A DNA stretch of 27,985 nt from the IMG/VR virus record IMGVR_UViG_2609459774_000007, positions 1-27,985 of that record; one strand, 5' to 3'. Below are positions 1,685 through 27,985 of this stretch, in pieces; position 1 is the stretch's first letter, and every line of letters begins with the position of its first letter. The translations under genes were made by a program, and so were the position numbers. The notes beneath the pieces are model-generated. The model saw nothing but the letters and a program-made list of their open reading frames with translations, made no database searches and had not been told where the DNA came from. The DNA comes from a virus. Taxonomy: Duplodnaviria; Heunggongvirae; Uroviricota; Caudoviricetes.

Positions 1685-1692
1685 TCTCTTTC

Positions 1693-7917: not shown

Positions 7918-7978
7918 TTCTCCTGAATTTAGATAAAGGGATGCCCGGCGGGTTTACGCCATTAATTTCATTAGCTGG

Positions 7979-9001: not shown

Positions 9002-9033
9002 GCTACCCCCTTAGAAAGTTCTCATAATTGAAC

Positions 9034-9392: not shown

Positions 9393-10025
9393 ATGAGTTT
9401 AATAAAGGCGGGAAATGATAGTGGTGGGCGCGATGCAATTAACAGGCTTATTAAGGCTTACAACTTCAGCTCACGACAGCAGCTCTGCGAACATCTGGAA
9501 GTATCAAAAAGCACTATGGCTAACAGATACTTAAGGGATAGCTTTCCTGCCGAATGGGTAATTCAATGTGCCCTTGAAACAGGAGCTTCCCTTCTATGGC
9601 TGGCTACTGGTCAAGGAGATATGTATGCGTGTGAGAACGAAGAAACAAATCTCAAAAATGAACCTCCTGTCACTGTAAGACCACTTTCTAAGATCGTTGC
9701 TCCTAGCATCAAACGTGTTGAACTGAAGAACGGCGAACTGCAGCCAAGTGATGAAATTCTTCTTGATAGCAGCCTGCTCGATGGTGACTCATCCAACGCT
9801 TTATTTGTTAAAACAGCTAATAATAGCTTTGTAGTGGATACGTCCGTTAAACAAGTCAGTAATGGCTTCTGGTTAGTCGATATGGACGGAGTTAAAAGCA
9901 TCGTTAAAATTGCGCGCATACCCGGAAACAAAATAGTAGTTAACCAAGATGACACTTCATTTGAATGTTCTGTAGATGATGTGGAAGTCGTAGGACGTGC
10001 AGTCAAAGTAATCAAGAACCTCTAA
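9393..10025 (+). CDS. cI: 186-type CI-like immunity repressor
   Basis: About 210 aa with an N-terminal HTH (VSKSTMANRYLRD...) and a C-terminal oligomerisation-like region; immediately upstream of int as in 186-type prophages. The track ORF starts at a TTG (9387); ATG at 9393 has AGAGG 7 nt upstream. Confidence 0.75.
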   Translation: MSLIKAGNDSGGRDAINRLIKAYNFSSRQQLCEHLEVSKSTMANRYLRDSFPAEWVIQCALETGASLLWLATGQGDMYACENEETNLKNEPPVTVRPLSKIVAPSIKRVELKNGELQPSDEILLDSSLLDGDSSNALFVKTANNSFVVDTSVKQVSNGFWLVDMDGVKSIVKIARIPGNKIVVNQDDTSFECSVDDVEVVGRAVKVIKNL

Positions 10026-10028
10026 CTT

Positions 10029-11048
10029 ATGACCATCAGAAAACAGCCGAACGGAAAATGGTTGTGTGAGTGCTATCCCAATGGACGCAATGGTAAGCGC
10101 GTGCGTAAGCAATTTGCTACCAAAGGCGAAGCCATTGCGTTTGAAAGCTTCACAATGGAAGAAGTGAACAAAAAACCGTGGTTAGGAGAAAAGGATGATC
10201 GGCGACACCTATCAGAATTAATTGAGCTTTGGTATTCCCTGTATGGTCAGACACTCGCAGACCCCAAGCGCCTCATGGCGAAACTTAGAATTATCTGTAA
10301 TGGTCTAGGCGACCCCATCGCCTCAGAACTGACAGCCGGTGACTTTACGAAATACCGCGAAGCACGGTTAAAAGGTGAAGTACGAAATGAAGATGGGACG
10401 CTTATGTCGCCCGTTAAGCCCCGCACGGTAAACCTCGAACAGCGCAATCTATCATCGGTGTTCGGTACATTAAAAAAACTAGGACACTGGTCAGCACCAA
10501 ACCCGCTGGCAGGACTTCCAACCTTCAAAATTGCCGAAGGTGAGCTGGCTTTTCTTTCCATGGACGAAATCAAGCGCCTGTTGGCTGCATGTGCTGAATC
10601 TCAAAGCCCCAGCTTATTAATGATTGCCAAAATATGTTTGGCTACCGGCGCACGTTGGAGCGAAGCCGAAAACCTGCATGGCCACCAAATATCGAAATAC
10701 CGAATTACTTATATAAAGACAAAAGGTAAGAAAAACAGAACAGTACCGATATCACAGGAACTATATGACGAACTCCCCAAGCACAGAGGGAAGTTATTCA
10801 CGCCATGCAGAAAAGCCTTTGAGCGTGCAGTAAAGCGGGCCGGTATTGAACTTCCGGAGGGGCAATGCACCCATGTATTACGTCATACATTCGCCAGCCA
10901 TTTTATGATGAACGGCGGAAACATACTGGTACTACGCGATATTCTGGGCCATGTGGATATAAAAATGACGATGATTTATGCCCACTTTTCCCCTGACCAC
11001 CTAGAAGATGCGGTAACAAAAAACCCACTGTTTAATTTAAAATGGTAA
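10029..11048 (+). CDS. int: P2-type tyrosine integrase
   Basis: 339-aa ORF with clear similarity to P2 Int (PxGRNGKRxRxxF...; catalytic-region HxLRHTFASHFMMNGG...MxYAHF); transcribed toward the attR repeat. Confidence 0.9.
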   Translation: MTIRKQPNGKWLCECYPNGRNGKRVRKQFATKGEAIAFESFTMEEVNKKPWLGEKDDRRHLSELIELWYSLYGQTLADPKRLMAKLRIICNGLGDPIASELTAGDFTKYREARLKGEVRNEDGTLMSPVKPRTVNLEQRNLSSVFGTLKKLGHWSAPNPLAGLPTFKIAEGELAFLSMDEIKRLLAACAESQSPSLLMIAKICLATGARWSEAENLHGHQISKYRITYIKTKGKKNRTVPISQELYDELPKHRGKLFTPCRKAFERAVKRAGIELPEGQCTHVLRHTFASHFMMNGGNILVLRDILGHVDIKMTMIYAHFSPDHLEDAVTKNPLFNLKW

Positions 11049-12583
11049 ATTTAACGATGAAAAGATTGAAATCAGTTTCCGATGCAGTTATCCAACTCAG
11101 ATTAAATGCGGTAAAAGCAAGTATTCAAAGCGTCAATCCAAACGAGTTTATAACACATTGCCTTGATTATAACCTCCAGAAATTTAACAATCAGCTTGAA
11201 ATGTTACAACACCTACCATGGGTTGTGAATTTATGCATTAAATGGTCCGCCAGTGCGCTGGGTAAAAAACGGAAATTTAAACATATTGACAGACCTGGTG
11301 CTGTCAGGTTGCTACAACGAGCATATGAGGAACTAAGTATAATTCCAACTGGTCTGGAAAATATAGACAAAGGGATTAACTTTTTCCTTAGAAATACGTT
11401 ATATCAACAAGGTATTTATCAAAGATTAGATGCTTTAAATACAATTAGCAGACAAGTTTTCTTGTTTTCTTCCTTAGATGACAACAATAGAATCAAGCGT
11501 AGATTCAAAGAACTTACTGATGTTGATATAAACGATTTTCTAAAACTATCATTTGTGTTAGTATCACTCGTTACCTTACAAGCACCAGTAAAGAAAATAA
11601 CAATAGATTCTTTCGCAGCTCTTTACTCCGTAATACCTAAAGATACAATCGAGAAATTTCTGAATACTATATCTATCCCTTACGAAGAACTAGCTCGGTT
11701 TTGCTGTACAAAAGATAATGAGACACCTTTAGTAGAATATTATGCTCCATCGCCTTTCTTAGAAAAACCTTTCATCAAATTCGAAGGAAATTATCACCAA
11801 ATACATACGCAGCTAACTTCGACCAGTATACAAACCTTTATATATGATTTGCTTCGCAGAGATGATGCAGAATCGTTCATGGACAAATTTGGGCGAGTTT
11901 TCGAAAATGCAGTCAACCAGCTATTAGATGAAAGTGGAATTGCTTATATTGCTGAAGGAAATTTAAAAGAATATCTACCTCAAGAGAATAAAGTTGTAGA
12001 TTTTCTACTACCTCATGATGAAGCTAACATTTTCATCGATGCTAAAGGTGTTGAGATAAACCAAAAGGGAATGGTTACACTACGACCAGGGGATATTTCT
12101 GCCAATATAAAAAGCTCCGTATTAAAAACTATAGAACAAGCACACTCAGTAAATAGAGAGCTAATTAAAAAAGGTAACCAAAATTTTTCTTTTAAAAAAG
12201 AGTCCTACATTTTATGTCTTACTTATAAAAATTTATTCCTTGGAAATGGTACATTTCTAAATAAATCCTATGCTAACATCGAAATGAAAAAAATCCGAGA
12301 TAGGCATTCAGAAGAATATCAAATACCTGATGAGAACATTTTCTGCATATCATTTGAGGAATTCGAGTATCTGCTATCTTCTTGCAAGGAATACTCAAAA
12401 CCTGTACATGAGGTACTGCGAGAAGCTGTAGTTAGAAACCAAACACCATCAAGTGCAGTTTTCCTTTTTGCACATCATATCCGTGACTCATTCCCCAAAA
12501 TACGTTCATCTGAGATCGTCAGGCTCGCAGGCTTGAGCGAGATCAACCATATCGTTGAACGATTAGAGCAAGCTGGCTCTTGA
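11042..12583 (+). CDS. uncharacterised 513-aa cargo protein with a putative C-terminal PD-(D/E)xK nuclease core
   Basis: Long AT-rich ORF between int and attR, overlapping the int stop (alternative start ATG 11057). The C-terminal half has E...VVDFLLP...IFIDAKG, fitting the E/D/(D/E)xK arrangement of PD-(D/E)xK nucleases; the N-terminal ~270 aa have no recognised motifs. Confidence 0.6.
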   Translation: MVNLTMKRLKSVSDAVIQLRLNAVKASIQSVNPNEFITHCLDYNLQKFNNQLEMLQHLPWVVNLCIKWSASALGKKRKFKHIDRPGAVRLLQRAYEELSIIPTGLENIDKGINFFLRNTLYQQGIYQRLDALNTISRQVFLFSSLDDNNRIKRRFKELTDVDINDFLKLSFVLVSLVTLQAPVKKITIDSFAALYSVIPKDTIEKFLNTISIPYEELARFCCTKDNETPLVEYYAPSPFLEKPFIKFEGNYHQIHTQLTSTSIQTFIYDLLRRDDAESFMDKFGRVFENAVNQLLDESGIAYIAEGNLKEYLPQENKVVDFLLPHDEANIFIDAKGVEINQKGMVTLRPGDISANIKSSVLKTIEQAHSVNRELIKKGNQNFSFKKESYILCLTYKNLFLGNGTFLNKSYANIEMKKIRDRHSEEYQIPDENIFCISFEEFEYLLSSCKEYSKPVHEVLREAVVRNQTPSSAVFLFAHHIRDSFPKIRSSEIVRLAGLSEINHIVERLEQAGS

Positions 12584-12712
12584 TTGCACAATTGCAAATT
12601 GGCGACAAATTGGCGGCAGAGCATTAAAAATGCGTAAAATAAACAAACACCAAATAATACTAATATGCTGTTTTAAAACATAAATATATGTTTTTATCAT
12701 AATAATAATGGT

Positions 12713-12761
12713 ATGTAGGAATTTCGGACGCGGGTTCAACTCCCGCCAGCTCCACCAAATA
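12713..12761. repeat. attachment-site direct repeat, copy 2 (partial ssrA 3' end; attR of the P2-like element and attL-type junction of the P4-like island)
   Basis: Exact 49-bp repeat of 1016-1064; the sequence upstream of it is unrelated to ssrA, so this is only a partial ssrA copy. Confidence 0.85.
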
Positions 12762-12791
12762 TTGATGTACTGAAGTTCAGTAAAGTCTACT

Positions 12792-12826
12792 AAGCCCGCA
12801 CAGCACAAGCTCTGCGGGCTTTTTTA
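12792..12826 (+). terminator. Rho-independent terminator downstream of the second att copy
   Basis: GC-rich stem GCCCGCA/TGCGGGC with a ~12-nt loop, followed by TTTTTT. Confidence 0.55.
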
Positions 12827-12923
12827 CGTCTATTGTAGTCTAGTGAGAATTGCTGAGAACTACGAGTTATGGCACCCTGAATGGGACCCACGAAGATGGG
12901 TCCTAAAATCGAGGGTCCCAAAC

Positions 12924-14153
12924 ATGGCCAAAATCGCTAAGAAGCTCACTGACACTGAAATCAAAAGCACCAAACCTGCCGAAAAAGAGGTTAACCTTTT
13001 TGACGGCGATGGTTTGCTGTTGCGAATCGCTCCCCTGGCGAAGGGAGGGAAGAAAAATTGGTATTTCAGATATGCAGTGCCTGTGACCAAAAAGCGAACT
13101 AAGGTGAGCTTAGGAACCTATCCTCACCTTACACTTGCGAAGGCACGAGCTTTACGTGATGAATACTTGTCGTTGCTTACAAATGGTATAGACCCCCAAG
13201 TTCATAACAACCAAAAAGCCAATGCACTGAAAGATGCCACGGAACATACATTTCAAGCAGTAGCCAAGAAGTGGCTTGATGAGAAAGTCAAAACGTCAGG
13301 CATCTCCCAAGATCATGCTAACGACATCTGGCGAAGCCTAGAGAGAAATATCTTTTCCACATTGGGTGATACCCCAATTAAGGAGATTCGCCCTAAAATG
13401 CTTAAACAGCATTTAGAACCCATAGAAAAACGAGGTGTCCTTGAAACACTTCGCCGCATCATATCCCGCCTGAATGAAATTTTCCGCTATGCAGCAACAG
13501 AAGAACTCATAGAATTCAACCCGGCAGACAACCTGGGGCAACGGTTCAGCAAGCCAAAAAAACAGAATATGCCAGCATTACCCCCTTCCGAACTCCCTCG
13601 CTTCTTGGTTGCTCTAAACAATGCTTCTATCCGTTTGGAAACAAGGCTACTGATTGAGTGGCAACTTCTCACATGGGTTCGCCCAGGTGAAGCTGTTCGC
13701 ACAAGATGGTCAGATATTGATATTGAAACTGGCATGTGGAACATCCCGGCGGAGTTTATGAAAATGAAGAAGCCTCACAAAGTTCCACTGAGCAAAGAAG
13801 CTTTGCGAGTTTTGGATTTAATGAAAGTCATCAGCGGGCATAGAGAGTGGGTGTTCCCCAGTATCAAAGCTCCACTCAATCACATGCATGAACAAACAGC
13901 TAATGCGGCCATAATCCGTATGGGTTTCGGAGGTGAGCTTGTAGCTCACGGTATGCGATCCATTGCTAGAACGGCTGCTGAGGAGTCTGGCAAGTTTAGG
14001 ACTGATGTCTTAGAAGCCGCCCTTGCCCACTCGAAGAAAGATGAAATAATTGCAGCCTACAATCGTGCAGAGTATCTCACTGAACGGGTGGTTCTCATGC
14101 AATGGTGGAGTGACTATGTTTCGTCTCAAAAATGCAAAGTTATTGCCGCATAA
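12924..14153 (+). CDS. P4/IntA-family tyrosine integrase
   Basis: Strong similarity to E. coli CP4-57 IntA as I recall it (LTDTEIK..KP, DIWRSLER, LETLRR, PLS.EAL.(V/I)L, HG.RSIA.TA, LAH, AYNR.(E/D)YL..R...MQWW.D). The track ORF starts at 12843; the homology-supported start is ATG 12924 (MAKIAKKLTDTEIK). Confidence 0.9.
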   Translation: MAKIAKKLTDTEIKSTKPAEKEVNLFDGDGLLLRIAPLAKGGKKNWYFRYAVPVTKKRTKVSLGTYPHLTLAKARALRDEYLSLLTNGIDPQVHNNQKANALKDATEHTFQAVAKKWLDEKVKTSGISQDHANDIWRSLERNIFSTLGDTPIKEIRPKMLKQHLEPIEKRGVLETLRRIISRLNEIFRYAATEELIEFNPADNLGQRFSKPKKQNMPALPPSELPRFLVALNNASIRLETRLLIEWQLLTWVRPGEAVRTRWSDIDIETGMWNIPAEFMKMKKPHKVPLSKEALRVLDLMKVISGHREWVFPSIKAPLNHMHEQTANAAIIRMGFGGELVAHGMRSIARTAAEESGKFRTDVLEAALAHSKKDEIIAAYNRAEYLTERVVLMQWWSDYVSSQKCKVIAA

Positions 14154-14215
14154 CTCTCCCATGATGGATTAACTATCTTGATTTAGTTAAAGAATTAATA
14201 ATCACACCATTAACC

Positions 14216-14265
14216 TATGTGGACTAAGCATAGCCATTTACAAATGGGGACATTGAGTCCACATA
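14216..14265. repeat. 50-bp nested inverted repeat (candidate recombinase or ParB binding/crossover site)
   Basis: Outer 10-bp arms TATGTGGACT / AGTCCACATA flank a 30-bp spacer that itself contains CCATTT-AC-AAATGG (6-bp arms around a non-palindromic AC centre); between intA and the serine recombinase gene. Confidence 0.5.
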
Positions 14266-14435
14266 ACGAAAGCTGTCGGTCATATCAGCTAAATAATTCA
14301 CATCTCTTCTCGATTATCATACACCTCGAAGATCTACCAAATTCGCTCTAATCAATGATAAAACAGTTGAATTCGGTTGAAATTTGATCAATTTTATCCA
14401 CTACATTGTATTGAATCATCCATGAGGTTTCGTGC

Positions 14436-15992
14436 ATGGCTAGCGAAAATGACAAAAATCATAGAGTTAGGGTCGCGCAGTACTTGAGGATGTCTACCGA
14501 CCATCAGCAATATTCTTTACATAATCAGTCCGAATATATCAAAGATTATGCTGAAAAGAACAATATGGAAATCGCTTATACCTACGATGATGCAGGTAAG
14601 AGCGGAGTCAGTATCGTAGGCAGGCATTCTTTGCAGCAGTTACTTAGCGATGTAGAACAAAAGAAAATAGATATACAGGCTGTATTATTTTATGATGTGA
14701 GCCGTTTTGGTCGTTTTCAAAATAGTGATGAAGCGGCATATTATTCCTTTCTATTTGAGAGAAATGGTGTAGATCTTATATATTGTTCCGAACCTATACC
14801 CACTAAAGATTTCCCTTTAGAGTCCTCTGTTATACTGAATATAAAAAGATCTAGTGCTGCATATCACAGCAGGAATCTATCTGAAAAGGTATTTATAGGG
14901 CAAGTAAATTTAATAAAGCTTGGTTATCATCAAGGCGGTATGGCTGGTTATGGGCTGAGACGTCTTTTAGTAGACGAAAATGGCATAGCTAAAGAAATAT
15001 TGAGTTTCCGCAAAAGAAAGAGTATTCAAACAGATAGGGTAATATTAATTCCGGGACCAAAAAATGAAATAAAAATTGTAAATAGAATATATGATCTCTT
15101 TATAGATAATAACGTCCCAGAATTCATTATTGCTGAGAGATTAAATGAACAGAACATACCTGCAGAAAATGGAACATTATGGACTCGTGCAAAAATACAT
15201 CAAATTTTGACAAATGAAAAATATATTGGAAACAACATATATAACAAAACCTCATCTAAATTAAAAAGTAGGCTTGTAAAAAACCCCAAACATGAATGGG
15301 TTAGATGTGACAAGGCATATAAACCTATTATTTCAAAGAAAAAATACAATAAAGCTCAAGAAATAATTCAGCTCCGATCCATTCATTTGACTAATGAAGA
15401 TCTATTAGAAAAACTAAAACAAAAATTAGAATCTAATGGAAAACTATCAGGCTTTATCATTGATGAAGATGATACAGGCCCTTCATCTTCTGTTTATAGA
15501 ACCCGATTTGGTGGTCTTTTAAGAGCATATACTTTGATTGGTTATAAGCCAGAACATGATTACAGCTATCTCAAAATAAATGAAGCACTAAGATCATTTT
15601 ACTCAGAGATAATTGAGGATTTTAAGGGTGAAATTTTAAAAAGTAACTGTCATATAGACGAGTATAAATATGCCCCAATGCTTTACATCAATGATGAGTT
15701 TTTAATTTCCGTCCTTGTTACTAAATGCATACATATGAAATCAGGTAAACTTAGATGGAAAGTCCGGTTTGATAACTCACAGAAAGCAGACATAACAATT
15801 GTTATACGAATGAATTCACAAAATATTTCACCTCTTGATTTTTATATCATACCAAAGATTGAAAACGAATATAATAAAATGTGCATGACGGAAACAAACA
15901 ACATTCGATTAGATCTCTATAGATTTGATAATCTTGATAAACTTCTACAAATTATTACTCGCATGAAAGTGAGGGAACTATATGCTGCCTGA
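14436..15992 (+). CDS. large serine recombinase (resolvase/invertase catalytic domain plus recombinase domain)
   Basis: 518-aa AT-rich ORF; the N-terminus has the serine-recombinase catalytic pattern (YLRMSTDHQQYSLHNQ ... YDDAGKSG ... DVSRFGR); RBS GAGG upstream. Confidence 0.85.
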   Translation: MASENDKNHRVRVAQYLRMSTDHQQYSLHNQSEYIKDYAEKNNMEIAYTYDDAGKSGVSIVGRHSLQQLLSDVEQKKIDIQAVLFYDVSRFGRFQNSDEAAYYSFLFERNGVDLIYCSEPIPTKDFPLESSVILNIKRSSAAYHSRNLSEKVFIGQVNLIKLGYHQGGMAGYGLRRLLVDENGIAKEILSFRKRKSIQTDRVILIPGPKNEIKIVNRIYDLFIDNNVPEFIIAERLNEQNIPAENGTLWTRAKIHQILTNEKYIGNNIYNKTSSKLKSRLVKNPKHEWVRCDKAYKPIISKKKYNKAQEIIQLRSIHLTNEDLLEKLKQKLESNGKLSGFIIDEDDTGPSSSVYRTRFGGLLRAYTLIGYKPEHDYSYLKINEALRSFYSEIIEDFKGEILKSNCHIDEYKYAPMLYINDEFLISVLVTKCIHMKSGKLRWKVRFDNSQKADITIVIRMNSQNISPLDFYIIPKIENEYNKMCMTETNNIRLDLYRFDNLDKLLQIITRMKVRELYAA

Positions 15993-16878
15993 AAAAAATG
16001 AATTCCCAATAATTCAAATTGAGATTGCAAAAATAAAATTTCTTAACCCACGAACAAGAAATAAGGTAGTGCATGAAGAAATAAAGGAAAGCATAAAAAA
16101 AAGAGGATTAAGCAAGCCAATAAGCGTAAGAGCTATTGATGAAGGCGATTTCAAATATGCTTTAATTTGTGGTCAAGGGAGAATAGAGGCTCTCGTTGCA
16201 TTAGGTGAAACTATTATTCCAGCAATTATAAGAGATGTATCAGAAGAAGATGCTTACGTTATGAGTTTAGTTGAAAACATTGCAAGGAGAAGGCCACGTT
16301 CTAATGAGTTATTACAGGTGATTAAAGACATGAAAATCAGAGGACTTTCAGACTCCGAAATAAGTGAGATTACTGGATATTCATCGAACTGGGTGAGCAG
16401 TATTAATATGCTACTTGATAAGGGAGAGCATAAACTTCTCTCAGCAGTCGAACGGGGTAATTTGCCTCTGTATCTCGCAGTGCAATTTGCAAGATGTGAA
16501 ACTGAGGAAGCACAAGATATTCTTACCGAAGCATATGATAAAAAATTAATAAAAAGTCGGGACATTATAAAGATAAAACACATTCTAAATCAAAGAACAG
16601 TTGGGAATAAAGGTGCAAAAGCAGCCGGATTTTATTATCACAAACCATCAAAAAGGATGACTGCAGAGGAGTTGATTGAGCTTTATGAAAATAGTATCGC
16701 TGAACATAAATCTGTTTATAACAACTCAAAATTCATAAAAACCAACCTACTAATAGTAAATGAGATTTTTAACATCATAATGATGAATAAAAGCTTTCAA
16801 CATATACTTGAACAAGAGAATCTTTCAGAACTACCATCTCAGATATTAACCCCAGTAAACAAAGAGGTATTAAAATGA
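15982..16878 (+). CDS. ParB/Srx-fold protein with HTH (ParB-like, paralogue 1)
   Basis: 298 aa; N-terminal ParB-like region (IQIEIAKIKFLNPR ... ISVRAIDEGDFKYALICGQGRIEAL ... IPAIIRDVSEEDAYVMSLVENIARR) followed by an HTH-like segment; start overlaps the recombinase stop. Confidence 0.7.
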   Translation: MLPEKNEFPIIQIEIAKIKFLNPRTRNKVVHEEIKESIKKRGLSKPISVRAIDEGDFKYALICGQGRIEALVALGETIIPAIIRDVSEEDAYVMSLVENIARRRPRSNELLQVIKDMKIRGLSDSEISEITGYSSNWVSSINMLLDKGEHKLLSAVERGNLPLYLAVQFARCETEEAQDILTEAYDKKLIKSRDIIKIKHILNQRTVGNKGAKAAGFYYHKPSKRMTAEELIELYENSIAEHKSVYNNSKFIKTNLLIVNEIFNIIMMNKSFQHILEQENLSELPSQILTPVNKEVLK

Positions 16879-17771
16879 TTCAGATACGTTTTGGCGATAA
16901 TTTTATTTACCTGGAAACTAATAAGTTAATTCCATCTAAGGAATTATTAGAAAACGTAAAGCGAAGCCATAAATATCATCAAATAGTTACCTCTATCGAA
17001 AGCTTAGGTATTATTGAACCAATAATAGTATTCTATGACAAAGATAAAGATGTCACTAAGATACTTGATGGCCATTTAAGGGTTGAGGCTTTAAAAGACT
17101 TAGGTATAGAAAAAGCTCCATGTATACTTTCGAGCATAGATGATGCTTTCACTCCTAACAAACAAGTGAATCATATAAATGTAGTTGAAGAACATAGAAT
17201 GATAATTAAGTCTCTGGCAAAAGTATCAATTGAAAAACTTAGTGCTGCTTTGGGCATATCTGTTGATGCCATAAAAGATAAAGCGAATGTGATGAACGGC
17301 ATAGATCCAAGTGTAATTGCGAAACTTTCTGATAAACCTATACCTAAGGCTACATTTGACGTTTTGAGGAAAATGAAGCCAATTCGCCAAATTGAAGCAG
17401 TCGGTACAATGATTAATTTTGATAATTATAGTAAAAAATTTGCAATGAGCATCTTGGATGCAACACCGGCATCGATGATAGTAAATAAAGGGAAAAACAC
17501 TCCCTATAAAAAGGACATAAAAAAAACCATACTTCGTCTGGAACAAGAAATGGCAACAACTTCGGAAGAAACGAAAAAGCTTCAAACCGAGTATGGTTCA
17601 GATATGTTGAAATTCGTTATAATCCAGTCATATATTAATAAATTACTTGGCAATTCTAAAGTTCTTCATTGGTTCTTAGAAAACGAGGTTGATTATCTTA
17701 ATGAGTTAAAAAGAATTTCTAGAATAAATTCTTTGGATGATAAGACTCTTACTGAAAACAGCAAGTCATAG
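16875..17771 (+). CDS. ParB/Srx-fold protein with HTH (ParB-like, paralogue 2)
   Basis: 298 aa; ParB-like N-terminal region with a DGHxR-type motif (ILDGHLRVEAL) and an HTH-like segment (LSAALGISVDAIKD); start overlaps the stop of the preceding ParB-like gene by 4 nt. Confidence 0.65.
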   Translation: MIQIRFGDNFIYLETNKLIPSKELLENVKRSHKYHQIVTSIESLGIIEPIIVFYDKDKDVTKILDGHLRVEALKDLGIEKAPCILSSIDDAFTPNKQVNHINVVEEHRMIIKSLAKVSIEKLSAALGISVDAIKDKANVMNGIDPSVIAKLSDKPIPKATFDVLRKMKPIRQIEAVGTMINFDNYSKKFAMSILDATPASMIVNKGKNTPYKKDIKKTILRLEQEMATTSEETKKLQTEYGSDMLKFVIIQSYINKLLGNSKVLHWFLENEVDYLNELKRISRINSLDDKTLTENSKS

Positions 17772-18879
17772 TCATGGTTTTATATAGCCTAAATAAACCA
17801 AGAAGTATACTTACACAACGACCTTCACGCCGAAGAAGCTGTCAGATACGCCAGCAACCAAAGCATTACGTTTAAGTGTCAGTCATTGATACGAAGGGAT
17901 AACTGCGTATCAGCAGCCGGACATTGAGTCGAATAAAGGCTGGTAGAGAGGGACAGTTCTGTGTCATCGGGAGATTCGTCAGAAACATCAGCGGCAGAAC
18001 AGATGAACCAGCAATTGGTAGTGCACAGAAAACTCTCCAGTATTTAATTATTCAACTTAACACTAAAAAAAATCACATAGTTAATATCATAATTTTTCTT
18101 TGGTCTACGTATGCGAGAGATATTGTGGCTTTAACCGGGTATTAGGAGTCGTTTCAGATAAAAGATGTTCTTCGATTCGACTGGACTTGGTAATAGCAAT
18201 AAGTAATCGTTAATATTGAAGGACGAAAGGCTACTTCAAAACAAAGTAACCTTTCCAATATTCCCATCTATGGGACAAGTGGTACATTAACTGCACATAG
18301 TGCAGGATACATATGACATAAAACTTTTTATTTATGGCATACATTATAAATAACTTGTATTTTATGAATGTCAATAGGTTCTTGTTTAATACTTTTAAAA
18401 TTATTAATTGATTGTTTTTATTATAGCTTCGCTTGTACAAGCGAAGATCCTATTGTTCTTGAATGAATAATGCCAATTATAAGAGAAGCAAGGGCTAACT
18501 CTGCGAAGCCGCTGCGCTTGCTTCTTCGAGTTCCCCTTGCTTTTCTGCCCTTCGGTTATAAAAGAAGCCAAACTGCTACCAACCTTGAATCTCTATATTT
18601 TTGAATAGACAAACATTACCCGCTCCCTTAATCACCACTATCAAAAATAAAAAATCATCTTACAAATAACCCCATACACATCATTTTAGATTGCGACCTT
18701 ATTAAATTAAAAATTCAACCTTAGATGGAATTTAATGTACAAGGAATGTCCTACTGTAACGGAGAATTTTAAACATTAAAAATTACAACTATGGTTTGTC
18801 ATAGCCTGTACATCTATTCACCTCATGCATATGCACTAAGAAAGCTTTTTTGAATACTGGAGTTGTCCCTGCTAAAACG

Positions 18880-19210
18880 GACACGGCTAATTAACTGCTA
18901 ATATGGCATCACGATATTCGCGTGGCGATTTCATGTTCAACCCCTTGTGTGGATGCAGATTATTATAATCCTCTATCTATTCTGCCATTGTTTCCATCAT
19001 TTAGACTGCATCCAGCAGATCATCTACGTACACATAATCCCGCTTGAACGTCTTTACAAACGATTCTGCCATGCCGTTACTTCCCGGACTGCGTACTGGT
19101 GTAGTACACACGATGAACCACAGTGAACTAGCGAATGTGCGCGTGGCATCGGCTGTGCAGCAATTATGCCAATGACACTGGCTCCATTGACGGCAATGAC
19201 CTGACATCTA
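18880..19210 (-). pseudogene. IS3-family (IS2-like) transposase 3' fragment, frameshifted remnant
   Basis: Two frames on the minus strand give ...RSPGSNGMAESFVKTFKRDY... and ...HPHKGLNMKSPREYRDA..., matching the C-terminal region of IS2 InsD-type transposases ([20 protein letters not shown] ... [14 protein letters not shown]); no intact ORF. Confidence 0.6.
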
Positions 19211-19367
19211 CAATCCCGCTACAAAGCATTTACTCCATGAGTCATTGCACTTGCTGAGCTACACGAACACACTAAAACCAGATAATAATTAATCGCTGTA
19301 TAAGCTCGTAACAAGCGGAACTTTAAGGCAAAATAGGGCCATCTTCCCCCTTCATAAGGTTACGCTA

Positions 19368-20915
19368 ATGGCCAGAAAACCTAAAGAAATCAAAACAGAC
19401 CCGTTAGAGGTCATCCTGTGGAAAGCGGCAGACAAACTGCGTAAAAACATTGATGCAGCCGAGTACAAGCACGTCGTACTAGGCCTCATTTTCCTTAAGT
19501 ACATTTCTGATTCTTTTGAATCTCATTATGAGTTGCTGAAAGCCGGTAAAGGCGAGTTCGCAGGTGCTGATCCGGAAGACAAAGACGAGTACACCGCTTA
19601 CAACGTTTTCTTTGTCCCTGAGCTTGCACGTTGGAACTATCTGATTTCTAAGGCCAAGCTTCCTGAAATCGGTAAGATGGTTGATGATGCGATGGAGCTT
19701 ATCGAAGCGGGCAATCCACAGTTAAAAGGTGTGTTGCCGAAAGTCTATGCCCGACAAAACCTCGACGCCACTGTTCTGGGTGAGCTGATAGATCTGATTG
19801 GCAACATTGCACTAGGAGATGCCAAAGCACGCTCTGCTGACGTTTTAGGTCACGTATTCGAATACTTCCTAGGTGAATTTGCACTGGCAGAAGGCAAACA
19901 AGGCGGCCAGTTCTATACGCCAAAATCTATTGTAAGCCTGCTGGTTAACATGCTGGAACCCTATAAAGGCCGTGTCTTTGATCCCTGCTGTGGTTCTGGT
20001 GGTATGTTCGTTCAGTCAGAAAAATTTGTAGAAGCACATCAGGGAAATATTGACGATATTTCGATCTATGGGCAGGAGTCCAACCAGACCACTTGGCGTC
20101 TGGCAAAAATGAACCTGGCAATTCGTGGGATTAATTCTGAACACGTTCGCTGGAATAATGAAGGTTCATTTCTTAACGATGCTCACAAAGATTTGAAATC
20201 TGATTTTATCATAGCTAACCCACCGTTTAACGTTTCCGACTGGTCTGGTGAGCAGCTTCGTGGTGATGCCCGCTGGCAATATGGCATTCCACCTGCTGGC
20301 AACGCTAACTTTGCATGGATGCAACATTTTTTGTATCACTTGTCTCCTAAAGGGCAAGCGGGTGTTGTTCTGGCAAAAGGGGCATTAACTTCTAAAAGCT
20401 CTGGTGAAGGTGATATTCGTGCTGCACTGGTAAAAGATGCCAATGTGATTGACTGTATCGTCAACTTACCGGCAAAGCTGTTCCTGAATACTCAGATCCC
20501 TGCTGCATTATGGTTTATGCGCCGTGACCGTCATAACAGCAACCAGTATCGTGATCGTAGTAAAGAAATTCTGTTTATTGATGCCCGTAATCTCGGTCAT
20601 TTAATTAATCGTCGTACCAAAGTACTTTCTGACGACGATATAAAAACCATCGCTGATACCTATCATAACTGGCGTAACAAAGGTGGCGACTACGAAGACG
20701 TCGCTGGTTTCTGTGCGTCAGTAGACATTGCTGAAGTTGCTAAACTCGATTATGTGCTGACACCTGGCCGTTATGTTGGTCTTGCTGATGAAGAAGACGA
20801 TTTCGACTTTAAAGAACGCTTTACGGCTCTTAAAGCTGAGTTTGAAGCGCAACTGGAAGAAGAGGCGCGTCTGAACAGAGCCATCGTTGATAATCTGGCG
20901 AAGGTGGTTTTATGA
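19368..20915 (+). CDS. hsdM: type I restriction-modification system, DNA methyltransferase subunit
   Basis: 515-aa ORF with an HsdM-type N-terminus and the N6-adenine methyltransferase catalytic motif NPPF (IIANPPFN); start overlaps nothing upstream and its stop overlaps the hsdS start by 4 nt. Confidence 0.92.
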
Positions 20916-22105
20916 GTAGGTGGAGAAATTTTTGTATAACTGAATTAGCAGATTTTTGCAACGCACAAAGAATTCCTTTGAGTGCTATGGAACGAGCCCA
21001 TAAGAAAGGAAATTTTCCATATTATGGAGCGTCAGGAATTGTCGATTATATCGACAATTATATTTTTGATGGCAGCTACATCCTTATTTCTGAAGATGGA
21101 GAAAACTTAAAGTCCAGAAAAACACCTATAGCATTTGAAGCTACTGGAAAATTTTGGGTTAATAATCACGCTCATGTCCTTAAAGCTAAAAAGCCCCATT
21201 TAACGGCATTGATAATCCAATATTTTTCACAACTTGATCTATCTCCTTATTTAACAGGTGCTGCTCAACCAAAATTAAATAAAGCATCGCTAAATTTGAT
21301 TCCTCTTTACTTACCAATTGATGAATCTGAACAAAAAGCCATCGCCTCTATTTTGTCCTCTCTTAAAGACAAAATAGACCTGCTTCATCGCCAGAATAAA
21401 ACTCTGGAATCCATGGCAGAAACCCTATTTAGACAGTGGTTTATTGAAGAGACGCATGCGGATTGGGAAATAACGACTCTTGATTGTCATATTACAGTAG
21501 CTAAGGGATTAAGCTACAAGGGAGCCGGCCTTACCACGTCAGATAACGGCATTCCACTTTTTAGTTTGAACTCAGTACTTGAGGGCGGTGGTTATAAGAG
21601 TGCAGGTATAAAATACTACAATGGTGATTTTAAAGAAAGGCATATTATAAAGCCTGGGGATATCATTGTAGCCAATACAGAACAGGGCCATGAATATCGA
21701 CTCATAGGGTATCCTGCTATAATTCCAAAAACAGAAAGCGAATTATCCATATATACGCATCATTTATTTAAAATCAGCATCAATGACGATAGTTACTTAA
21801 CCAATGCTTTTCTGTACTATTTACTTTGCTCCAAAGATATGCATGAGCAAGTTGTTGCTGCAACTAACGGTTCAACTGTAAATCAGCTGTCGGCTGACGG
21901 ATTACAACGCCCAGAATTCAAACTCCCCCCGGAGTGTATGGTGAAAGAATTCACTACACAGATTGATTTCTTCTGGAAAAAAATAAGTATTAACAACTCA
22001 CAAATTAAAAACATAGAATCTCTGCGCGACACTCTCCTTCCCAAACTGATGAGCGGCGAAGTACGGGTTCAGTATGCGGAAGAAGCAATCGCATCAGTAG
22101 CATAA
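20912..22105 (+). CDS. hsdS: type I restriction-modification system, specificity subunit
   Basis: 397-aa ORF with a two-target-recognition-domain architecture and the typical HsdS N-terminal pattern ([14 protein letters not shown]); translationally coupled to hsdM. Confidence 0.85.
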
Positions 22106-22163
22106 AATAATTATGCGGGTGTACAGCCCGCTCTCTGGTTAAGCGGCAATAAGGACAGTACGC

Positions 22164-25100
22164 ATGGCAAAGATGACCGAATCCGATATTGAAGTAATGG
22201 CAATTGAGCACCTGCAAGGGCTGGGCTATGAGTATGTTTACGGCCCGGACATTGAACCCAGTGGAATCAATCCGTTACGTAGCTATCAGCAGGTTATCCT
22301 TGAAGATAAAGTGCGTACAGCATTGCAACGAATTAACCCGCACCTTAGTGAGCAGAAGTGTGAAGAAGCTCTAAAACAGGTGATGCAGATCAGCTCACCT
22401 GACCTAATGGCAAACAATCTAACCTTTCATCGCCTTTTGACCGAAGGAATCAATATCGAAGTCAGCAAGGATGGTAATACACAAGGAGAACTGGCCAGCC
22501 TGATCGACTTTAACGATCCCACTAATAATGCATTTCTGGTCATTAATCAGCTCACCATCAAAGAAGGCAACCATACCCGCCGACCTGATCTTATTTTATT
22601 CATCAATGGCCTGCCATTAGTCGTTATCGAACTTAAAAATGCCGCTGACGAAAATGCAACGGTAACAGGTGCCTATAATCAGATTAAAACCTATCAGAAC
22701 CAAATCCCCGGTCTGTTTAACTACAATGCTTTTAATGTGATATCTGACGGGCTGGAAGCCAAAGCGGGGACGGTTTCTGCCGATTTCAGTCGTTATATGA
22801 CGTGGAAAACTGCTAACGGTAAAACGCAAGCCACCAGTACCCAACCACAGCTTGAAGTTTTATTACAGGGGTTGCTTAATCCTGTAACGCTGCTGGATAT
22901 AATCCGCCACTTTATCGTGTTTGAGGCCAGCAAACATGAAGACAGCAAAGGGATTATCAGTATCCGTACTGTTAAAAAAATGGCGGCTTATCACCAGTAC
23001 TACGCGGTCAATGCAGCAGTTCTTTCCACTATTCGTGCCTCAGCGGTGAATGCGGACTCCCCCTCTGCCGAAGTGGCACTGCGCCAGCAGGGACGTAACA
23101 GTAAAGATCTTGTTAATGCGCAAAAAACCGGAGATCGCAAAGCGGGCGTAGTCTGGCATACTCAGGGTTCCGGTAAATCGCTTTCGATGGTGTTTTATAC
23201 CGGGAAAATTGTGCTGGCGCTGGATAATCCGACAGTTGTTGTGATTACTGACCGTAACGACTTAGATGATCAGCTATTCGGTACGTTCTCTTCCGCGACC
23301 CAGCTACTTCGTCAGACACCAAAACAGGCCAACAACCGGGAAGAACTCAAAGAATATTTGCGTGTCGCCTCTGGCGGTGTGGTGTTTACTACTATTCAAA
23401 AATTCCAGCCTGATGATGGCAGCAATATCTATGAGTTGTTGTCAGACAGAACCAATATTGTCGTTATCGCTGATGAAGCACACCGTTCCCAGTACGGTTT
23501 CAGCGCCAAAGAAGTTGACGTGAAAGACAGCGAAGGCAACGTAACAGGTAAACGCACCGTTTACGGCTTTGCCAAATATATGCGTGATGCCTTACCTAAT
23601 GCGACCTATCTCGGCTTTACCGGAACCCCCATAGAAAAAACGGACGTCAACACGCCTGCTGTTTTTGGTAACTATGTTGATATCTACGATATCTCGCAGG
23701 CCGTTGAAGATGGTGCAACAGTTCGTATCTTTTATGAAAGCCGTCTTGCCAAAATTGCCATCAGTGATGAAGGTCGTCAGCTTATTGAAGACTTTGATGA
23801 TGAGTTTAACGAGGACGAACTGACGCTCACGCAAAAAGAACGTTCTAAATGGGCCAGAATCGAAGGTTTGATTGGCAGTTCAAAACGTATTAAAGCGATT
23901 GCGGCGGATATGGTTCTGCACTTTGAGCAGCGCTTAAAATCCAATGCCGATCATGGTAAGGGCATGATTGTTACCATGTCCCGCCGTATTGCTGCTGAAC
24001 TATATAAAGAAATCATAGCCTTAAAACCTGAATGGCACAGCGATGATTTAAATGACGGTATAATAAAAGTCGTCATGACCTCTTCTGCTGCTGACGGGCC
24101 AGAAATTGCCAAACACCACACCACAAAAAAAGAACGTCAGGTTCTGGCTAACCGTATGAAGGATGACGACGACAAGCTGAAACTGGTGATAGTGCGTGAT
24201 ATGTGGTTAACCGGCTTCGACGCTCCCAGCATGCATACGCTGTATATCGACAAACCAATGAAAGGCCACAACCTTATGCAGGCAATTGCCCGTGTGAACC
24301 GTGTGTATAAAGATAAGATAGGCGGTCTGGTTGTTGACTATCTGGGCATTGCCTCTGATTTAAAAGAAGCCCTCTCCTTTTACTCTGATGCAGGTGGACG
24401 TGGAGATCCTGCTGAGGTTCAGGAAGAAGCCGTAACGCTCATGCAGGAAAAGCTGGAAATCCTGGAAGGCATGATGCATGGATACGATTACAAAGCTTAC
24501 TTTGCCGCAACTACCTCACAACGCCTGACAATTATTCTTGAATCAGAAAACCATATTTTAGGGCTGGATAACGGTAAAGGTAAAATGCGTTTCCTCGCTG
24601 CGGTTGCAGCCTTATCGCAGGCATTTGCATTGGCGACACCGCACGATAAAGCAATGGAAGCGGCACCCGAAGTAGCATTCTTCCAGGCAGTAAAAGCCAG
24701 ACTGAATAAATTTACTGAAAACTCAGACGGATCAGAAGAAGAACACAATGACAGTCTCGAAGTTCGGGTAAAACAGACTATCGATCAGGCTCTGGTTACC
24801 GATAAAGTTGTTGATATTTTTGACGCTGCTGGGATACAAAAACCTGATATTTCCGTTCTTTCTGAAGAATTCCTTCAGGAAATGAAGGATTACCAACACA
24901 GAAATATTGCTTTGGAAACGCTTAAAAAACTGCTTTCTGACGAGATCAAGGTTCGCTCGAATCAAAGTATCACCCAAGGCAAAAAACTGATTGATATGCT
25001 GACCTCTGCAATCAATGGCTACCAGAACAAGGTACTGACCGCAGCGGAGGTAATTGATGAGCTAATCAAGCTTGCCAAGACTATCCAGGAATCTGACAGC

Positions 25101-25403
25101 CTTGCCAGCCAGTTAAACCTCAGCGCTTATGAATATGCCTTCTATTCTGCTGTTGCAGATAACGACAGTGCTCGCGAGTTAATGGAAAAGGAAAAACTAC
25201 GAGAACTGGCAGTCGTACTTACGGAGGCTATCCGCAACAATGTCAGTCTTGACTGGACAGTGAAAGAAGCAGCAAGAGCAAAAATTCGCGTGGTGGTAAA
25301 ACGTCTGCTCAAAAAATATGGTTATCCGCCTGATATGTCATTGCTCGCCACAGAGACTGTTTTGAAGCAGGCTGAACTTTTAGCTGGAGAATTAGGAAAA
25401 TGA
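22164..25403 (+). CDS. hsdR: type I restriction-modification system, restriction (helicase/endonuclease) subunit
   Basis: 1079-aa ORF with an N-terminal nuclease region and SF2 helicase motifs including DEAH (VVIADEAHRSQ); RBS AAGGA upstream. Confidence 0.92.
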   Translation: MAKMTESDIEVMAIEHLQGLGYEYVYGPDIEPSGINPLRSYQQVILEDKVRTALQRINPHLSEQKCEEALKQVMQISSPDLMANNLTFHRLLTEGINIEVSKDGNTQGELASLIDFNDPTNNAFLVINQLTIKEGNHTRRPDLILFINGLPLVVIELKNAADENATVTGAYNQIKTYQNQIPGLFNYNAFNVISDGLEAKAGTVSADFSRYMTWKTANGKTQATSTQPQLEVLLQGLLNPVTLLDIIRHFIVFEASKHEDSKGIISIRTVKKMAAYHQYYAVNAAVLSTIRASAVNADSPSAEVALRQQGRNSKDLVNAQKTGDRKAGVVWHTQGSGKSLSMVFYTGKIVLALDNPTVVVITDRNDLDDQLFGTFSSATQLLRQTPKQANNREELKEYLRVASGGVVFTTIQKFQPDDGSNIYELLSDRTNIVVIADEAHRSQYGFSAKEVDVKDSEGNVTGKRTVYGFAKYMRDALPNATYLGFTGTPIEKTDVNTPAVFGNYVDIYDISQAVEDGATVRIFYESRLAKIAISDEGRQLIEDFDDEFNEDELTLTQKERSKWARIEGLIGSSKRIKAIAADMVLHFEQRLKSNADHGKGMIVTMSRRIAAELYKEIIALKPEWHSDDLNDGIIKVVMTSSAADGPEIAKHHTTKKERQVLANRMKDDDDKLKLVIVRDMWLTGFDAPSMHTLYIDKPMKGHNLMQAIARVNRVYKDKIGGLVVDYLGIASDLKEALSFYSDAGGRGDPAEVQEEAVTLMQEKLEILEGMMHGYDYKAYFAATTSQRLTIILESENHILGLDNGKGKMRFLAAVAALSQAFALATPHDKAMEAAPEVAFFQAVKARLNKFTENSDGSEEEHNDSLEVRVKQTIDQALVTDKVVDIFDAAGIQKPDISVLSEEFLQEMKDYQHRNIALETLKKLLSDEIKVRSNQSITQGKKLIDMLTSAINGYQNKVLTAAEVIDELIKLAKTIQESDSLASQLNLSAYEYAFYSAVADNDSARELMEKEKLRELAVVLTEAIRNNVSLDWTVKEAARAKIRVVVKRLLKKYGYPPDMSLLATETVLKQAELLAGELGK

Positions 25404-25448
25404 TTCCCTAAATTTTTAGCATATAAACTATTTGGTAATGGTCCCAAC

Positions 25449-25826
25449 TTATTGATAGTGTTTTATGTTCAGATAATGCCCGATTACTTTGTCATGCAGC
25501 TCCACCGATTTTGAGAACGACAGCGACTTCCGTCCCAGCCGTGCCAGATGCTGCCTCAGATTCAGGTTATGCCGCTCAATTCGCTGCGTATATCGCTTGC
25601 TGATTACATGCAGCTTTCCCTTCAGGCGGGATTCATACAGCGGCCAGCCATCCGTCATCCATATCACCACGTCAAAGGGTGACAGCAGGCTCATAAGACG
25701 CTCCAGCGTCGCTATAGTGCGTTCACCGAATACGTGCGCAACAACCGTCTTCCAGAGCCTGTCATACGCGTAAAACAGCCAGCGCTGCCGCGATTTAGCC
25801 CCGACGTAGCCCCACTGTTCGTCCAT
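25449..25826 (-). CDS. insB: IS1 InsB' transposase frame (expressed as an InsAB' fusion by -1 frameshifting)
   Basis: 125-aa ORF from the first Met matches the C-terminal ~125 aa of InsB ([23 protein letters not shown]...HYLNIKHYQ); the frame extends further upstream, overlapping insA. Confidence 0.8.
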
Positions 25827-26113
25827 TTCCGCGCAGACGATGATGTCACTGCCCGGCTGTATGCGCGAGGTTGCCGACTGCGGCCTGAGTTTTTTAAGTG
25901 ACGTAAAATCGTGTTGAGGCCAACGCCATTCATGGCCATATCAATGATTTTCTGGTGCGTACCGGGTTGAGAAGCGGTGTAAGTGAACTGCAGTTGCCAT
26001 GTTTTACGGCAGTGAGAGCAGAGATAGCGCTGATGTCCGGCAGTACTTTTACCGTTACGCACCACCCCGTCAGTAGCTGAACAGGAGGGACAGCTGATAT
26101 AAACAGAAGCCAC
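25712..26113 (-). CDS. insA: IS1 InsA, variant (11-aa in-frame deletion; stop codon lost, extended to 133 aa)
   Basis: The first 65 aa match InsA, then the segment CRATARIMGVG is missing (MNGVG|LNTI), and the canonical TAA after ...GRSR reads CAA so the frame runs on to 133 aa. The frameshift motif TTAAAAAAC is retained. Confidence 0.8.
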
Positions 26114-26632
26114 TGGAGCACCTCAAAAACATCATCATACACTAAATCAGTAAGTTGGCAGCATCACCCCTTCCTGGCTGTTGAAAAAGACTACGCTGCT
26201 TAAATTTTAAATGAGCATCCTCAAGCCGAATAACTTAAAGGATGCTCTTCAAATTTTAATAAGAATTATCAACAGCAAAAAACCTCATAAAAAACACTAC
26301 TCATTTAATTTCCAAAATTAAGATGAACATTAATAACCACCATTATATTACATGATCTTTTCCATATCCTATAGCATTACTCTCTATAGTATTAATATCT
26401 GAGCCTCTAATTATCTCCTTTATACAGATTAGTTCCAATATGGATAAATATTCTTGTGAAAATGGTTAATCCACATCACATAGGATAACCTTAACGTCCC
26501 TATGTTCCATTAAGTTAAGAATAACCTTAAGCAAACCAAATCAGATACCCCCTAATAAAACAAAAATAAATTTGAATACCGTAAAATCTGGTGTCATTAA
26601 TATCTTGAAAACAACAAAAAAGGAGATAAACA

Positions 26633-27502
26633 ATGATATCAAGAGAAAATAATAAAAATAACCTATTCCGTGTAAAGTCTAAAAATGGTGTCCTTCGTTG
26701 CCTTAAGGCTGGCATGGATATAAATATGTGCAATAGTAAAGGTCAAACTGCTCTTTTTACCTGTAATGTACCTGAAGCTATACAGGCAATGATTGACGCT
26801 GACATTGACATTCACCACTTGGATAATGACGGTAATAATGCATTATTCTATGCTCAAAATGTTGAAACAGTGGAACTTCTTGTCAGCAATGGTATTAATG
26901 TTAACCACCGGAATAAGTCAGGCACCCTTGCGATTCAACATATTGATGTTTCACCAGGGTTAGTAAAATATCTTATCAAAGCAGGACTAGATATCCATAC
27001 CAAAGATAGCTATGGCAATTCCTTTCTTTTCATTCCATTTGAAGGATATGTGTACGATGCACTAATTGAGGCTGGTTGCGACATTAATCATAAAAATATA
27101 AGTGGACAGACAGCATTCGATCACTGGCAGTCAGAAAATAATAGCATAGTTGGTAAATATACGCACTGGGAATCTAAAAACGATAACTACATTCGTTTTC
27201 TTATCCGTAATATTCATCTTAAAGACAGTTCAAAAATTGTATTCACGAACATTACATTTAAATCAATTGAGCTGTTGTCGTTACTTATAAAGCAAAAAAA
27301 TGAATTTGAGATAAGTGATAAGTGCATTATCACACCAACAAATGCCGACGCTAAAAAATTAATTTTACAACTAAAGAAGCTGACAGACATTAGTCATGTT
27401 TGGTTTTACATAAGCAGTACATATCTACTGACGCACTATGCAGGAAGACTGCTAATTAAATTGGATTTGCCCCTATATTTCCAGACATCTGTTATCACTT
27501 AA
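26633..27502 (+). CDS. ankyrin-repeat protein, 3' end interrupted by the IS2 insertion
   Basis: AT-rich ORF with a strong RBS (AAGGAG) and repeated ankyrin-like units (GQTALF...; [11 protein letters not shown]...[15 protein letters not shown]; KSGTLAIQH...; DSYGNSFL...; ISGQTAF). The last ~14 codons (from 27460) are IS2 terminal sequence, so the native C-terminus is lost. Confidence 0.7.
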
Positions 27503-27985
27503 CCCATTACAAGCCCGCTGCCGCAGATATTCCCGTGGCGAGCGATAACCCAGCGCACTATGCGGATGCCATTCGTTATAATGCTCGAACGCCTCTGCAA
27601 GGTTCTTTGCTGCCGTTAACCCGTCTGGTTTGGGCATGATACTGATGTAGTCACGCTTTATCGTTTTCACGAAGCTCTCTGCTATTCCGTTACTCTCCGG
27701 ACTCCGCACCGCCGTGTTCTTCGGTTCAAGTCCCAACATCCGGGCGAACTGGCGTGTTTCATTAGCCCGGTAGCATGAACCATTATCCGTCAGCCACTCC
27801 ACTGGAGACGACGGAAGATCGTTGCCGAAGCGGCGTTCCACCGCTCCCAGCATGACGTCCTGTACTGTTTCACTGTTGAAGCCGCCGGTAGTGACCGCCC
27901 AGTGCAGTGCCTCACGATCACAGCAGTCCAGCGCGAACGTGACACGCAGTCTCTCTCCGTTATCACAGCAGAACTCGAACCCGTC
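27460..27985 (-). mobile_element. IS2 insertion sequence, partial (continues beyond the window end)
   Basis: The terminal sequence at 27460-27500 is the reverse complement of the IS2 end (...GTGATAACAGATGTCTGGAAATATAGGGGCAAATCCA), and the adjacent ORF is IS2 InsD. Confidence 0.85.
27473..27985 (-). CDS. insD: IS2 transposase InsD (OrfB), 5'-partial at the window edge
   Basis: Matches the IS2 InsD C-terminal region (...[44 protein letters not shown]...[19 protein letters not shown]...); the frame continues in-phase upstream to the window end ([44 protein letters not shown]). Confidence 0.9.

Follow-up and report, generated by a model that had tools for sequence, protein, structure and literature searches.

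The DNA analyzed here, hereafter called the window, is the whole 27,985-nucleotide stretch (positions 1 to 27,985) of IMG/VR record IMGVR_UViG_2609459774_000007, a virus record placed in the Caudoviricetes, and our subject is the type I restriction-modification (R-M) system encoded within it by the genes hsdM, hsdS, and hsdR. An initial annotation, made from the sequence without database searches, had described a complete system in M-S-R order with all three genes full-length. Exact coordinates, intact open reading frames (ORFs), and profile matches in three libraries bear this description out. Indeed, the ORF listing and translations showed three ORFs free of frameshifts and premature stops over 6 kb (Table 1), and the type I M, S, and R calls agreed across Pfam, NCBIfam, and PADLOC, with E-values from 1e-29 to 0. 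HsdM was matched by the Pfam domains HsdM_N and N6_Mtase (E=2.6e-107) and by the PADLOC model MTase_I (E=6e-188), and its nearest solved structure was 3KHK (E=5e-143). It carries the S-adenosylmethionine (SAM) motif CGSGG at 208 and, as the initial annotation had noticed, NPPF (residue 284), so that the N6-adenine methyltransferase fold, the SAM motif, and the NPPF/NPPY motif that characterize a type I HsdM are all present. HsdR has the N-terminal PD-(D/E)xK nuclease and superfamily 2 (SF2) DEAD-box motor expected of a type I restriction subunit; Pfam matched HSDR_N, SWI2_SNF2/ResIII, a T1R_D3-like domain, and the HindI-type C-terminal domain T1RH-like_C, and the score against the NCBIfam model TIGR00348 was 591 bits (cut-off 285). 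The PADLOC matches to type I MTase, specificity, and REase models had E-values between 1e-146 and 0. The nuclease motifs were found as D142...E156-x-K158 with QIKTY at 173, and those of the motor as GSGKS at 335, the previously noted DEAH at residue 437, TGTP at 486, and QAIARVNR at 706.

HsdS was matched by Methylase_S in Pfam, and the PADLOC model Specificity_I spanned residues 1-397 (E=7e-146). Two target-recognition domains (TRDs) had been claimed for this subunit and are indeed present, as seen from Methylase_S on both halves, the full-length PADLOC model, and the pattern among aligned alleles. The N-terminal half matched Methylase_S with E=1e-24 and the C-terminal half with E=2.4e-4 (21.8 bits, just below the 22-bit cut-off). 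When the hsdS alleles of 15 loci with this M/R backbone were aligned, residues 1-140 and 181-360 were variable while residues 141-180 (82-92% conservation) and 361-397 were conserved; this is the arrangement of two variable recognition domains and two conserved helical regions that defines a type I HsdS. Compared with the related system of E. coli M159-1 (locus L004), HsdM was 97% and HsdR 98.5% identical and HsdS just 32%, and certain E. coli genomes have no more than a single part in common with this hsdS, be it TRD1, TRD2, or the central conserved region. Since recognition-domain swapping is the textbook mark of working, diversifying type I systems (PMC3874165), near-identical M and R subunits combined with divergent or partly shared S subunits argue that such a system is present here. 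The initial annotation had further held that the specificity is likely strain-specific. Other alleles, in which one recognition domain or both have been exchanged, do exist on the same M/R backbone; however, the exact hsdS allele occurs in ~240 E. coli genomes and in Kluyvera, and the term is therefore too strong for an allele that is common to a lineage and found across genera. Because a whole E. coli lineage and Kluyvera have this allele in common, one methylome would give the recognition motif for all carriers.

Table 1. Features of the R-M locus and its surroundings, by position in the window.
Feature	Position	Strand	Size	Remarks
ssrA (tmRNA)	698-1060	+		Integration target; ARAGORN; Rfam RF00023, 296 bits
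P2/186-like prophage remnant	1065-12712			Between exact 49-bp ssrA repeats
Second ssrA 3'-end copy (att repeat)	12713-12761	+	49 bp	Exact repeat of 1016-1064; junction of prophage remnant and R-M island
P4-type tyrosine integrase of R-M island	12924-14153	+		Pfam Arm-DNA-bind_3, Phage_int_M, Phage_integrase; APEC O78 WP_001062342.1
Large serine recombinase and two overlapping ParB/RepB-like genes	14436-17771	+		Pfam; 30-34% GC; phrog_95, phrog_3951, phrog_31451
IS3-family transposase remnant	18887-19156	-		Directly upstream of hsdM; pseudogene at the equivalent APEC O78 position
Sigma-70-like site (candidate promoter)	19187-19214	+		TTGACG-16-TACAAT; best upstream of hsdM; 10/12 consensus positions
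hsdM	19368-20915	+	515 aa	N6-adenine DNA methyltransferase subunit
hsdS	20912-22105	+	397 aa	Specificity subunit; TRD1 ~1-140, conserved region 141-180, TRD2 ~181-360, conserved region 361-397
GC-rich hairpin GCGGGTGTACAGCCCGC	22115-22131	+		In hsdS-hsdR gap; scan flagged minus strand only
hsdR	22164-25403	+	1079 aa	Restriction subunit: N-terminal PD-(D/E)xK nuclease, SF2 motor, HindI-like C-terminal domain
IS1-family element	25434-26167	-		Directly after hsdR, in relatives' Kiwa slot; Pfam InsA, DDE_Tnp_IS1
Ankyrin-repeat gene	26633-27502	+		Pfam Ank
IS2 (IS3-family)	27473-27985	-		Truncates island, runs off window; Pfam rve, rve_3; APEC O78 annotation IS2

The 6,036-bp system matched 347 of 5,426 complete E. 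coli genomes (242 at 99% identity or above), so that just ~6% of them carry it. All of these matches lay on chromosomes, where PGAP labels the genes as the M, S, and R subunits of a type I system, and every one from H4 on among the matches listed was an uninterrupted 100% match. One example is E. coli APEC O78, in which the 6,036 bp are 100% identical in DNA and the proteins are WP_000101606.1 (HsdM, equal in coordinates and length to hsdM of the window), WP_001356249.1 (HsdS), and WP_001096907.1. The system is thus already known, being annotated as type I R-M in ~240 E. coli genomes, and is an ordinary one. A literature search on the methylome or restriction-modification of sequence type (ST) 410 returned nothing relevant to it; in one ST410 paper, the methylases listed by an automated finder were of the Dcm type and M.EcoGVI alone. 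A plasmid origin was also considered and was rejected, since megablast against 72,556 plasmids gave no match.

Beyond E. coli, a survey of one genome per species yielded related R-M loci, and the M-S-R order was held in every one where M, S, and R were all located. HsdR was 96-98% identical in Pseudocitrobacter, Pantoea, Kluyvera, Pectobacterium, Citrobacter, and Phytobacter, ~80% identical in Proteus, Acinetobacter, and a Neisseriaceae genome, and 60-65% identical in Bacteroidota, Ignavibacteria, and Geobacter. A stretch of 8,966 bp (window positions 18496-27461), the IS1 element included, recurs at 98.3% identity in Kluyvera cryocrescens NBRC 102467, and its HsdM and HsdS are each 100% identical to those described here. 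Related loci are also found next to tRNA-Arg, tRNA-Met, tRNA-Gly or, in Proteus, the transfer-messenger RNA (tmRNA) gene. Considering the Kluyvera segment, the varied tRNA and tmRNA sites, the GC content of the R-M segment (37-47%), and the presence of the system in so few E. coli genomes, horizontal acquisition is well supported, and the earlier description of the genes as horizontally acquired defense cargo stands, with near-identical copies in Kluyvera, Citrobacter, Pantoea, Pectobacterium, and further genera.

We compared hsdM and hsdR with their orthologues in six other genomes, namely E. coli M159-1, representatives of four other named genera, and one metagenome-assembled proteobacterium. 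The ratio of nonsynonymous to synonymous substitution rates (dN/dS) was 0.024-0.036 for hsdM and 0.027-0.059 for hsdR over its 1079 codons; both genes are under strong purifying selection. Synonymous divergence differed between the two, with hsdM dS values of 0.40-0.59 being two to three times the hsdR values of 0.12-0.25 (comparisons with L004, L006, and L010). This difference is a sign of recombination within the operon, with breakpoints around hsdS.

The gene junctions bear on how the three subunits might be expressed. The hsdM and hsdS genes overlap by 4 bp (ATGA) with the Shine-Dalgarno sequence AAGGTGG just before the overlap, and in 15 of 15 related loci, ranging from Enterobacterales to Acinetobacter, the ATGA overlap is kept and the core AAGGT precedes it. 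The translational coupling of hsdM and hsdS that had been proposed from this arrangement is therefore probable. Between the hsdS stop and the hsdR start lies a gap of 58 bp, and the ribosome-binding site previously ascribed to hsdR alone was located as TAAGGA, 8 nt upstream of its ATG. The same gap contains a GC-rich hairpin. Its stem is seen again, with changes in the loop and in part of the stem, in the related loci L005, L006, L009, L010, and L011, and in a degraded form in L007 and L012; in Proteus loci, this position is taken by a canonical terminator of stem and T-run. A terminator scan of the region gave a count at chance level relative to shuffled sequence, and the only match in an Rfam scan was tmRNA. 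The hairpin, standing between the M-S unit and hsdR, could possibly serve as an attenuator or as a signal for processing, and, by analogy with other M-S-R systems, hsdMS and hsdR would be at least partly separate expression units.

Such an arrangement raises the alternative that methylation is the main or sole activity of the system, which would then have an epigenetic or self-marking role, and that restriction is silent through poor hsdR expression or restriction alleviation. The hairpin between hsdS and hsdR and the full terminator of the Proteus relatives would suit this alternative, as would the IS3-family remnant upstream of hsdM, which may have altered transcription. However, hsdR is as constrained as hsdM and keeps all of its nuclease and motor motifs, which would be unexpected if restriction were unused. 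Separate control of hsdR is, moreover, normal in type I systems with the M-S-R order, such as type IC, and we consider a role based mainly or solely on methylation, with restriction silent, improbable.

The window opens with smpB and ssrA, and the R-M genes lie downstream in an island at ssrA. In E. coli, the tmRNA locus is defense hotspot #9, which takes prophages, satellites, mobilizable elements, and transposons (PMC10121019), while the immigration control region (ICR), from yjiA to yjiN/yjiS, is the classical site of hsd genes, and leuX is a second rich site, hotspot 37 (PMC12707154). The initial annotation had placed this system on the ssrA island, away from the canonical hsd locus. Its location off the ICR was borne out by the tmRNA next to the island and by the ICR of APEC O78 (locus L047; NC_020163.1, 593443-595983), in which a penicillin G acylase gene is all that separates yjiS from yjiA and no hsd, mrr, or mcr genes were found; the ssrA system is thus no duplicate of a canonical one in that background. 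As for the island, an integrase island does lie at ssrA, but it is not a single unit. It consists of three layers: a prophage remnant, an older island of integrase, recombinase, and ParB genes, and, inside that island, a captured fragment of a different mobilizable element (~18476-27461), this last being the stretch common to other genera. The proximate vehicle of the R-M genes was the mobilizable element captured into the ssrA island and not the ssrA integrase island itself.

The outermost layer, the prophage remnant, contains gpD, a capsid fragment, gpA, a Dam-type methylase, CII, CI, and an integrase. APEC O78 differs from the window in having no such 11.6-kb remnant between ssrA and the island; window positions 1-1064 are 100% identical and positions 12713-27985 are 99.97% identical to its sequence. 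After the second attachment site (att) copy the order is P4-type integrase, recombinase/ParB genes, IS3 remnant, M-S-R, IS1, ankyrin gene, and IS2, which agrees with the previously noted placement of the R-M genes between an AT-rich recombinase module and insertion sequence (IS) elements: the module and the IS3 remnant lie upstream, and IS1 and IS2 downstream. In E. coli M159-1 an intact IS3 occupies the position of the remnant. At the far end, IS2 in APEC O78 is followed at once by core genes. A functional tie between the R-M system and the recombinase/ParB/ParB module was considered and rejected, since none of the 41 related R-M loci in other species has the module and PADLOC gave only a weak ParB-domain match; the module is a neighbor of the R-M genes and not a partner.

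Relatives of the captured segment reveal what has been lost from it. In five close relatives (L004, L005, L007, L009, and L010) kwaA-kwaB, encoding Kiwa, lie directly after hsdR, and E. coli M159-1 and Citrobacter youngae have in common a block of R-M, Kiwa, ankyrin, hypothetical, ankyrin, hypothetical, and relaxase genes. The ankyrin gene accompanies the R-M segment in several genera, and copies of it, 94-99% identical, are found downstream of R-M in L004, L005, L006, L008, and L010. In the window, the IS1-family element fills the slot of Kiwa, which we compared with positions 17996-19556 of L004, and the breakpoints relative to the relatives fall at 25433 and 26168. No target-site duplication is visible in the sequence flanking this IS1. 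Since the element lies exactly in the Kiwa slot and shows no target-site duplication, this lineage appears to have lost Kiwa through an IS1-mediated deletion; the same deletion is present in K. cryocrescens. The related R-M/Kiwa element of M159-1 is at a different chromosomal site, near ygbA. There, a ThiF-family adenylyltransferase gene and a gene for an MPN/JAB-family protein adjoin it (L004 4092-8075), possibly as another defense module.

The regular pairing with Kiwa could also mean that R-M is one half of an obligatory R-M and Kiwa cassette, perhaps with the ankyrin genes as further parts, and that it is crippled here by the IS1-associated loss. The position of kwaA-kwaB in five of the closest relatives (from four further genera and E. 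coli M159-1), the R-M-Kiwa-ankyrin-relaxase block common to Citrobacter and E. coli, and the exact placement of IS1 would all fit such a cassette. However, ~240 E. coli genomes and Kluyvera keep R-M without Kiwa and with M, S, and R undecayed, many more distant relatives have M-S-R without Kiwa, and the co-location fits ordinary clustering of defense genes. Since type I R-M and Kiwa are each self-sufficient and have each worked alone in published studies, an obligatory cassette is very improbable.

We therefore favor, with a probability of roughly 0.88, the reading that these genes form an intact and functional type I R-M system, presumably expressed and active, which was horizontally acquired as cargo on a fragment of a mobilizable element captured at ssrA and was then trimmed by IS elements with the loss of Kiwa. 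Several observations weigh against it. The region upstream of hsdM abuts the IS3 remnant, so that the native promoter could be damaged, and in our promoter scan promoter-like sites were rarer in the region than in shuffled sequence. WP_000101606.1, WP_001356249.1, and WP_001096907.1 were not mentioned in the literature searched. Further, a few E. coli genomes (H1-H3) have IS1 or IS3 insertions inside the system, which indicates that it is dispensable. As for the island, no distal att copy bounding it was found in APEC O78, from which it follows that the island is eroded; it is probably immobile as well. These last points, an IS-rich and eroded island that has lost its distal att and IS insertions within the genes of some genomes, could also be read to mean that the cluster is a decaying relic of pseudogenes that are still open by chance. 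Yet the 6 kb contain no frameshifts or stops, dN/dS is far below 1, and identity of at least 99% is maintained in 242 genomes, and we find a relic scarcely credible.

If the intact system functions as its relatives do, HsdS, with its two recognition domains held apart by the two conserved helices, would bind a bipartite asymmetric target and recruit two HsdM subunits, and one adenine would be methylated per strand. At a target unmethylated on both strands, as in incoming phage or plasmid DNA, two HsdR subunits would join the complex; the DEAH motor would then pump DNA at the expense of ATP, and the N-terminal PD-(D/E)xK nuclease would cut at a distance. Since hsdR follows the 58-bp hairpin gap and is probably partly self-controlled, modification may be established before restriction. 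The present locus would have arisen by capture of the mobilizable-element fragment into the ssrA integrase island, followed by the IS trimming that removed Kiwa.

Type I families are set by subunit exchange, antibody cross-reaction, and sequence (PMC3874165, PMC12707154); the comparisons made here are by sequence alone. The system does not fall into type IA, represented by EcoKI, since the score of HsdM against EcoKI M was just 68 bits, the genes run M-S-R and not R-M-S, and the location is ssrA and not the ICR. Neither does it fall into type IB (EcoAI), with HsdR scoring 26 bits against the EcoAI/FtnUII model NF046051 (cut-off 550). EcoR124I (type IC) resembles it in the M-S-R order with hsdR set apart and in the overall architecture of HsdR, with nuclease, motor, helical domain, and C-terminal domain. 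However, the sequences are distant (scores against the EcoR124 chains of 105 bits, E=3e-29, for HsdR and 141 bits for HsdM), which places the system outside type IC, and the system here is chromosomal and without plasmid copies. The hsdM of KpnBI (type IE), which Chin and colleagues are said to have described in 2004, is reportedly ~2.6 kb in length, compared with 1.5 kb here, and this would argue against type IE.

Type ID, a family defined by complementation (PMC12707154), was approached through locus L002, which lies in the ICR of E. coli WP3-S18-ESBL-09. Since the ICR holds only IA, IB, and ID systems and L002 is not IA, IB, or IC, we infer by elimination that L002 represents type ID (StySBLI, EcoR9I, KpnAI). 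Our system shares with it the M-S-R order, 48% identity in HsdM, an almost gapless alignment of the HsdS conserved regions at 40-48% identity, and 3KHK as nearest solved structure to HsdM; it differs in that HsdR is only 31% identical and in lying at ssrA while L002 lies in the ICR. Identity within a type I family is usually high, well above 48% for M and 31% for R, and type ID is further marked by 6 bp between the methylated adenines. Judged from these identities, the system would be ID-related at most, and we do not file it as an ID member. Of the remaining E. coli systems in the comparison, L003, in a leuX-type island of E. coli AR_0089, had the nearest HsdR (HsdM 46%, HsdR 45%); this system differs in its island and in an extra DUF4268 gene between hsdS and hsdR.

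Since "further families undoubtedly exist" among type I systems (PMC3874165), an unlettered family would be no surprise. We tentatively raise the possibility, although it is rather unlikely, that the M/R backbone constitutes such a family, that it is spreading in Enterobacterales as an R-M and Kiwa pair on mobilizable elements, and that it forms the only type I barrier in an empty-ICR E. coli lineage. This lineage comprises APEC O78 and its relatives, and we take it to include ST23 and ST410 strains. If the system were indeed the only type I barrier there, its recognition motif could shape the entry of plasmids and phages into a clinically important lineage. In APEC O78-type strains, with no hsd genes in the ICR, it may in any case be the chief type I obstacle for incoming DNA in transformation and conjugation, a point of use in strain engineering. 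Otherwise the findings add little beyond bookkeeping, since a standard defense module, already annotated in hundreds of E. coli genomes, lies at a described defense hotspot; the locus does illustrate how IS elements trim defense islands, here by the apparent removal of Kiwa.

Two further ORFs in the prophage remnant were observed. The prophage integrase gene and a 513-aa ORF (11042-12583, plus strand, 34% GC) overlap at the stop codon of the former; the ORF had no Pfam or PADLOC match and corresponds to phrog_14259 (function unknown). A different 401-aa hypothetical gene occupies the same slot in MS20649, and the ssrA P2-like prophages of other genomes carry, somewhere in the prophage, genes for DUF262, an anti-phage dCTP deaminase, a P-loop NTPase, or an AAA ATPase. 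The slot looks like a variable site for defense cargo, and the ORF is a possible candidate defense gene. Directly after the ssrA att site, a 160-aa ORF (1184-1666, plus strand), without a Pfam match, matched phrog_2561, labelled 'DNA ligase', with E=5e-77.

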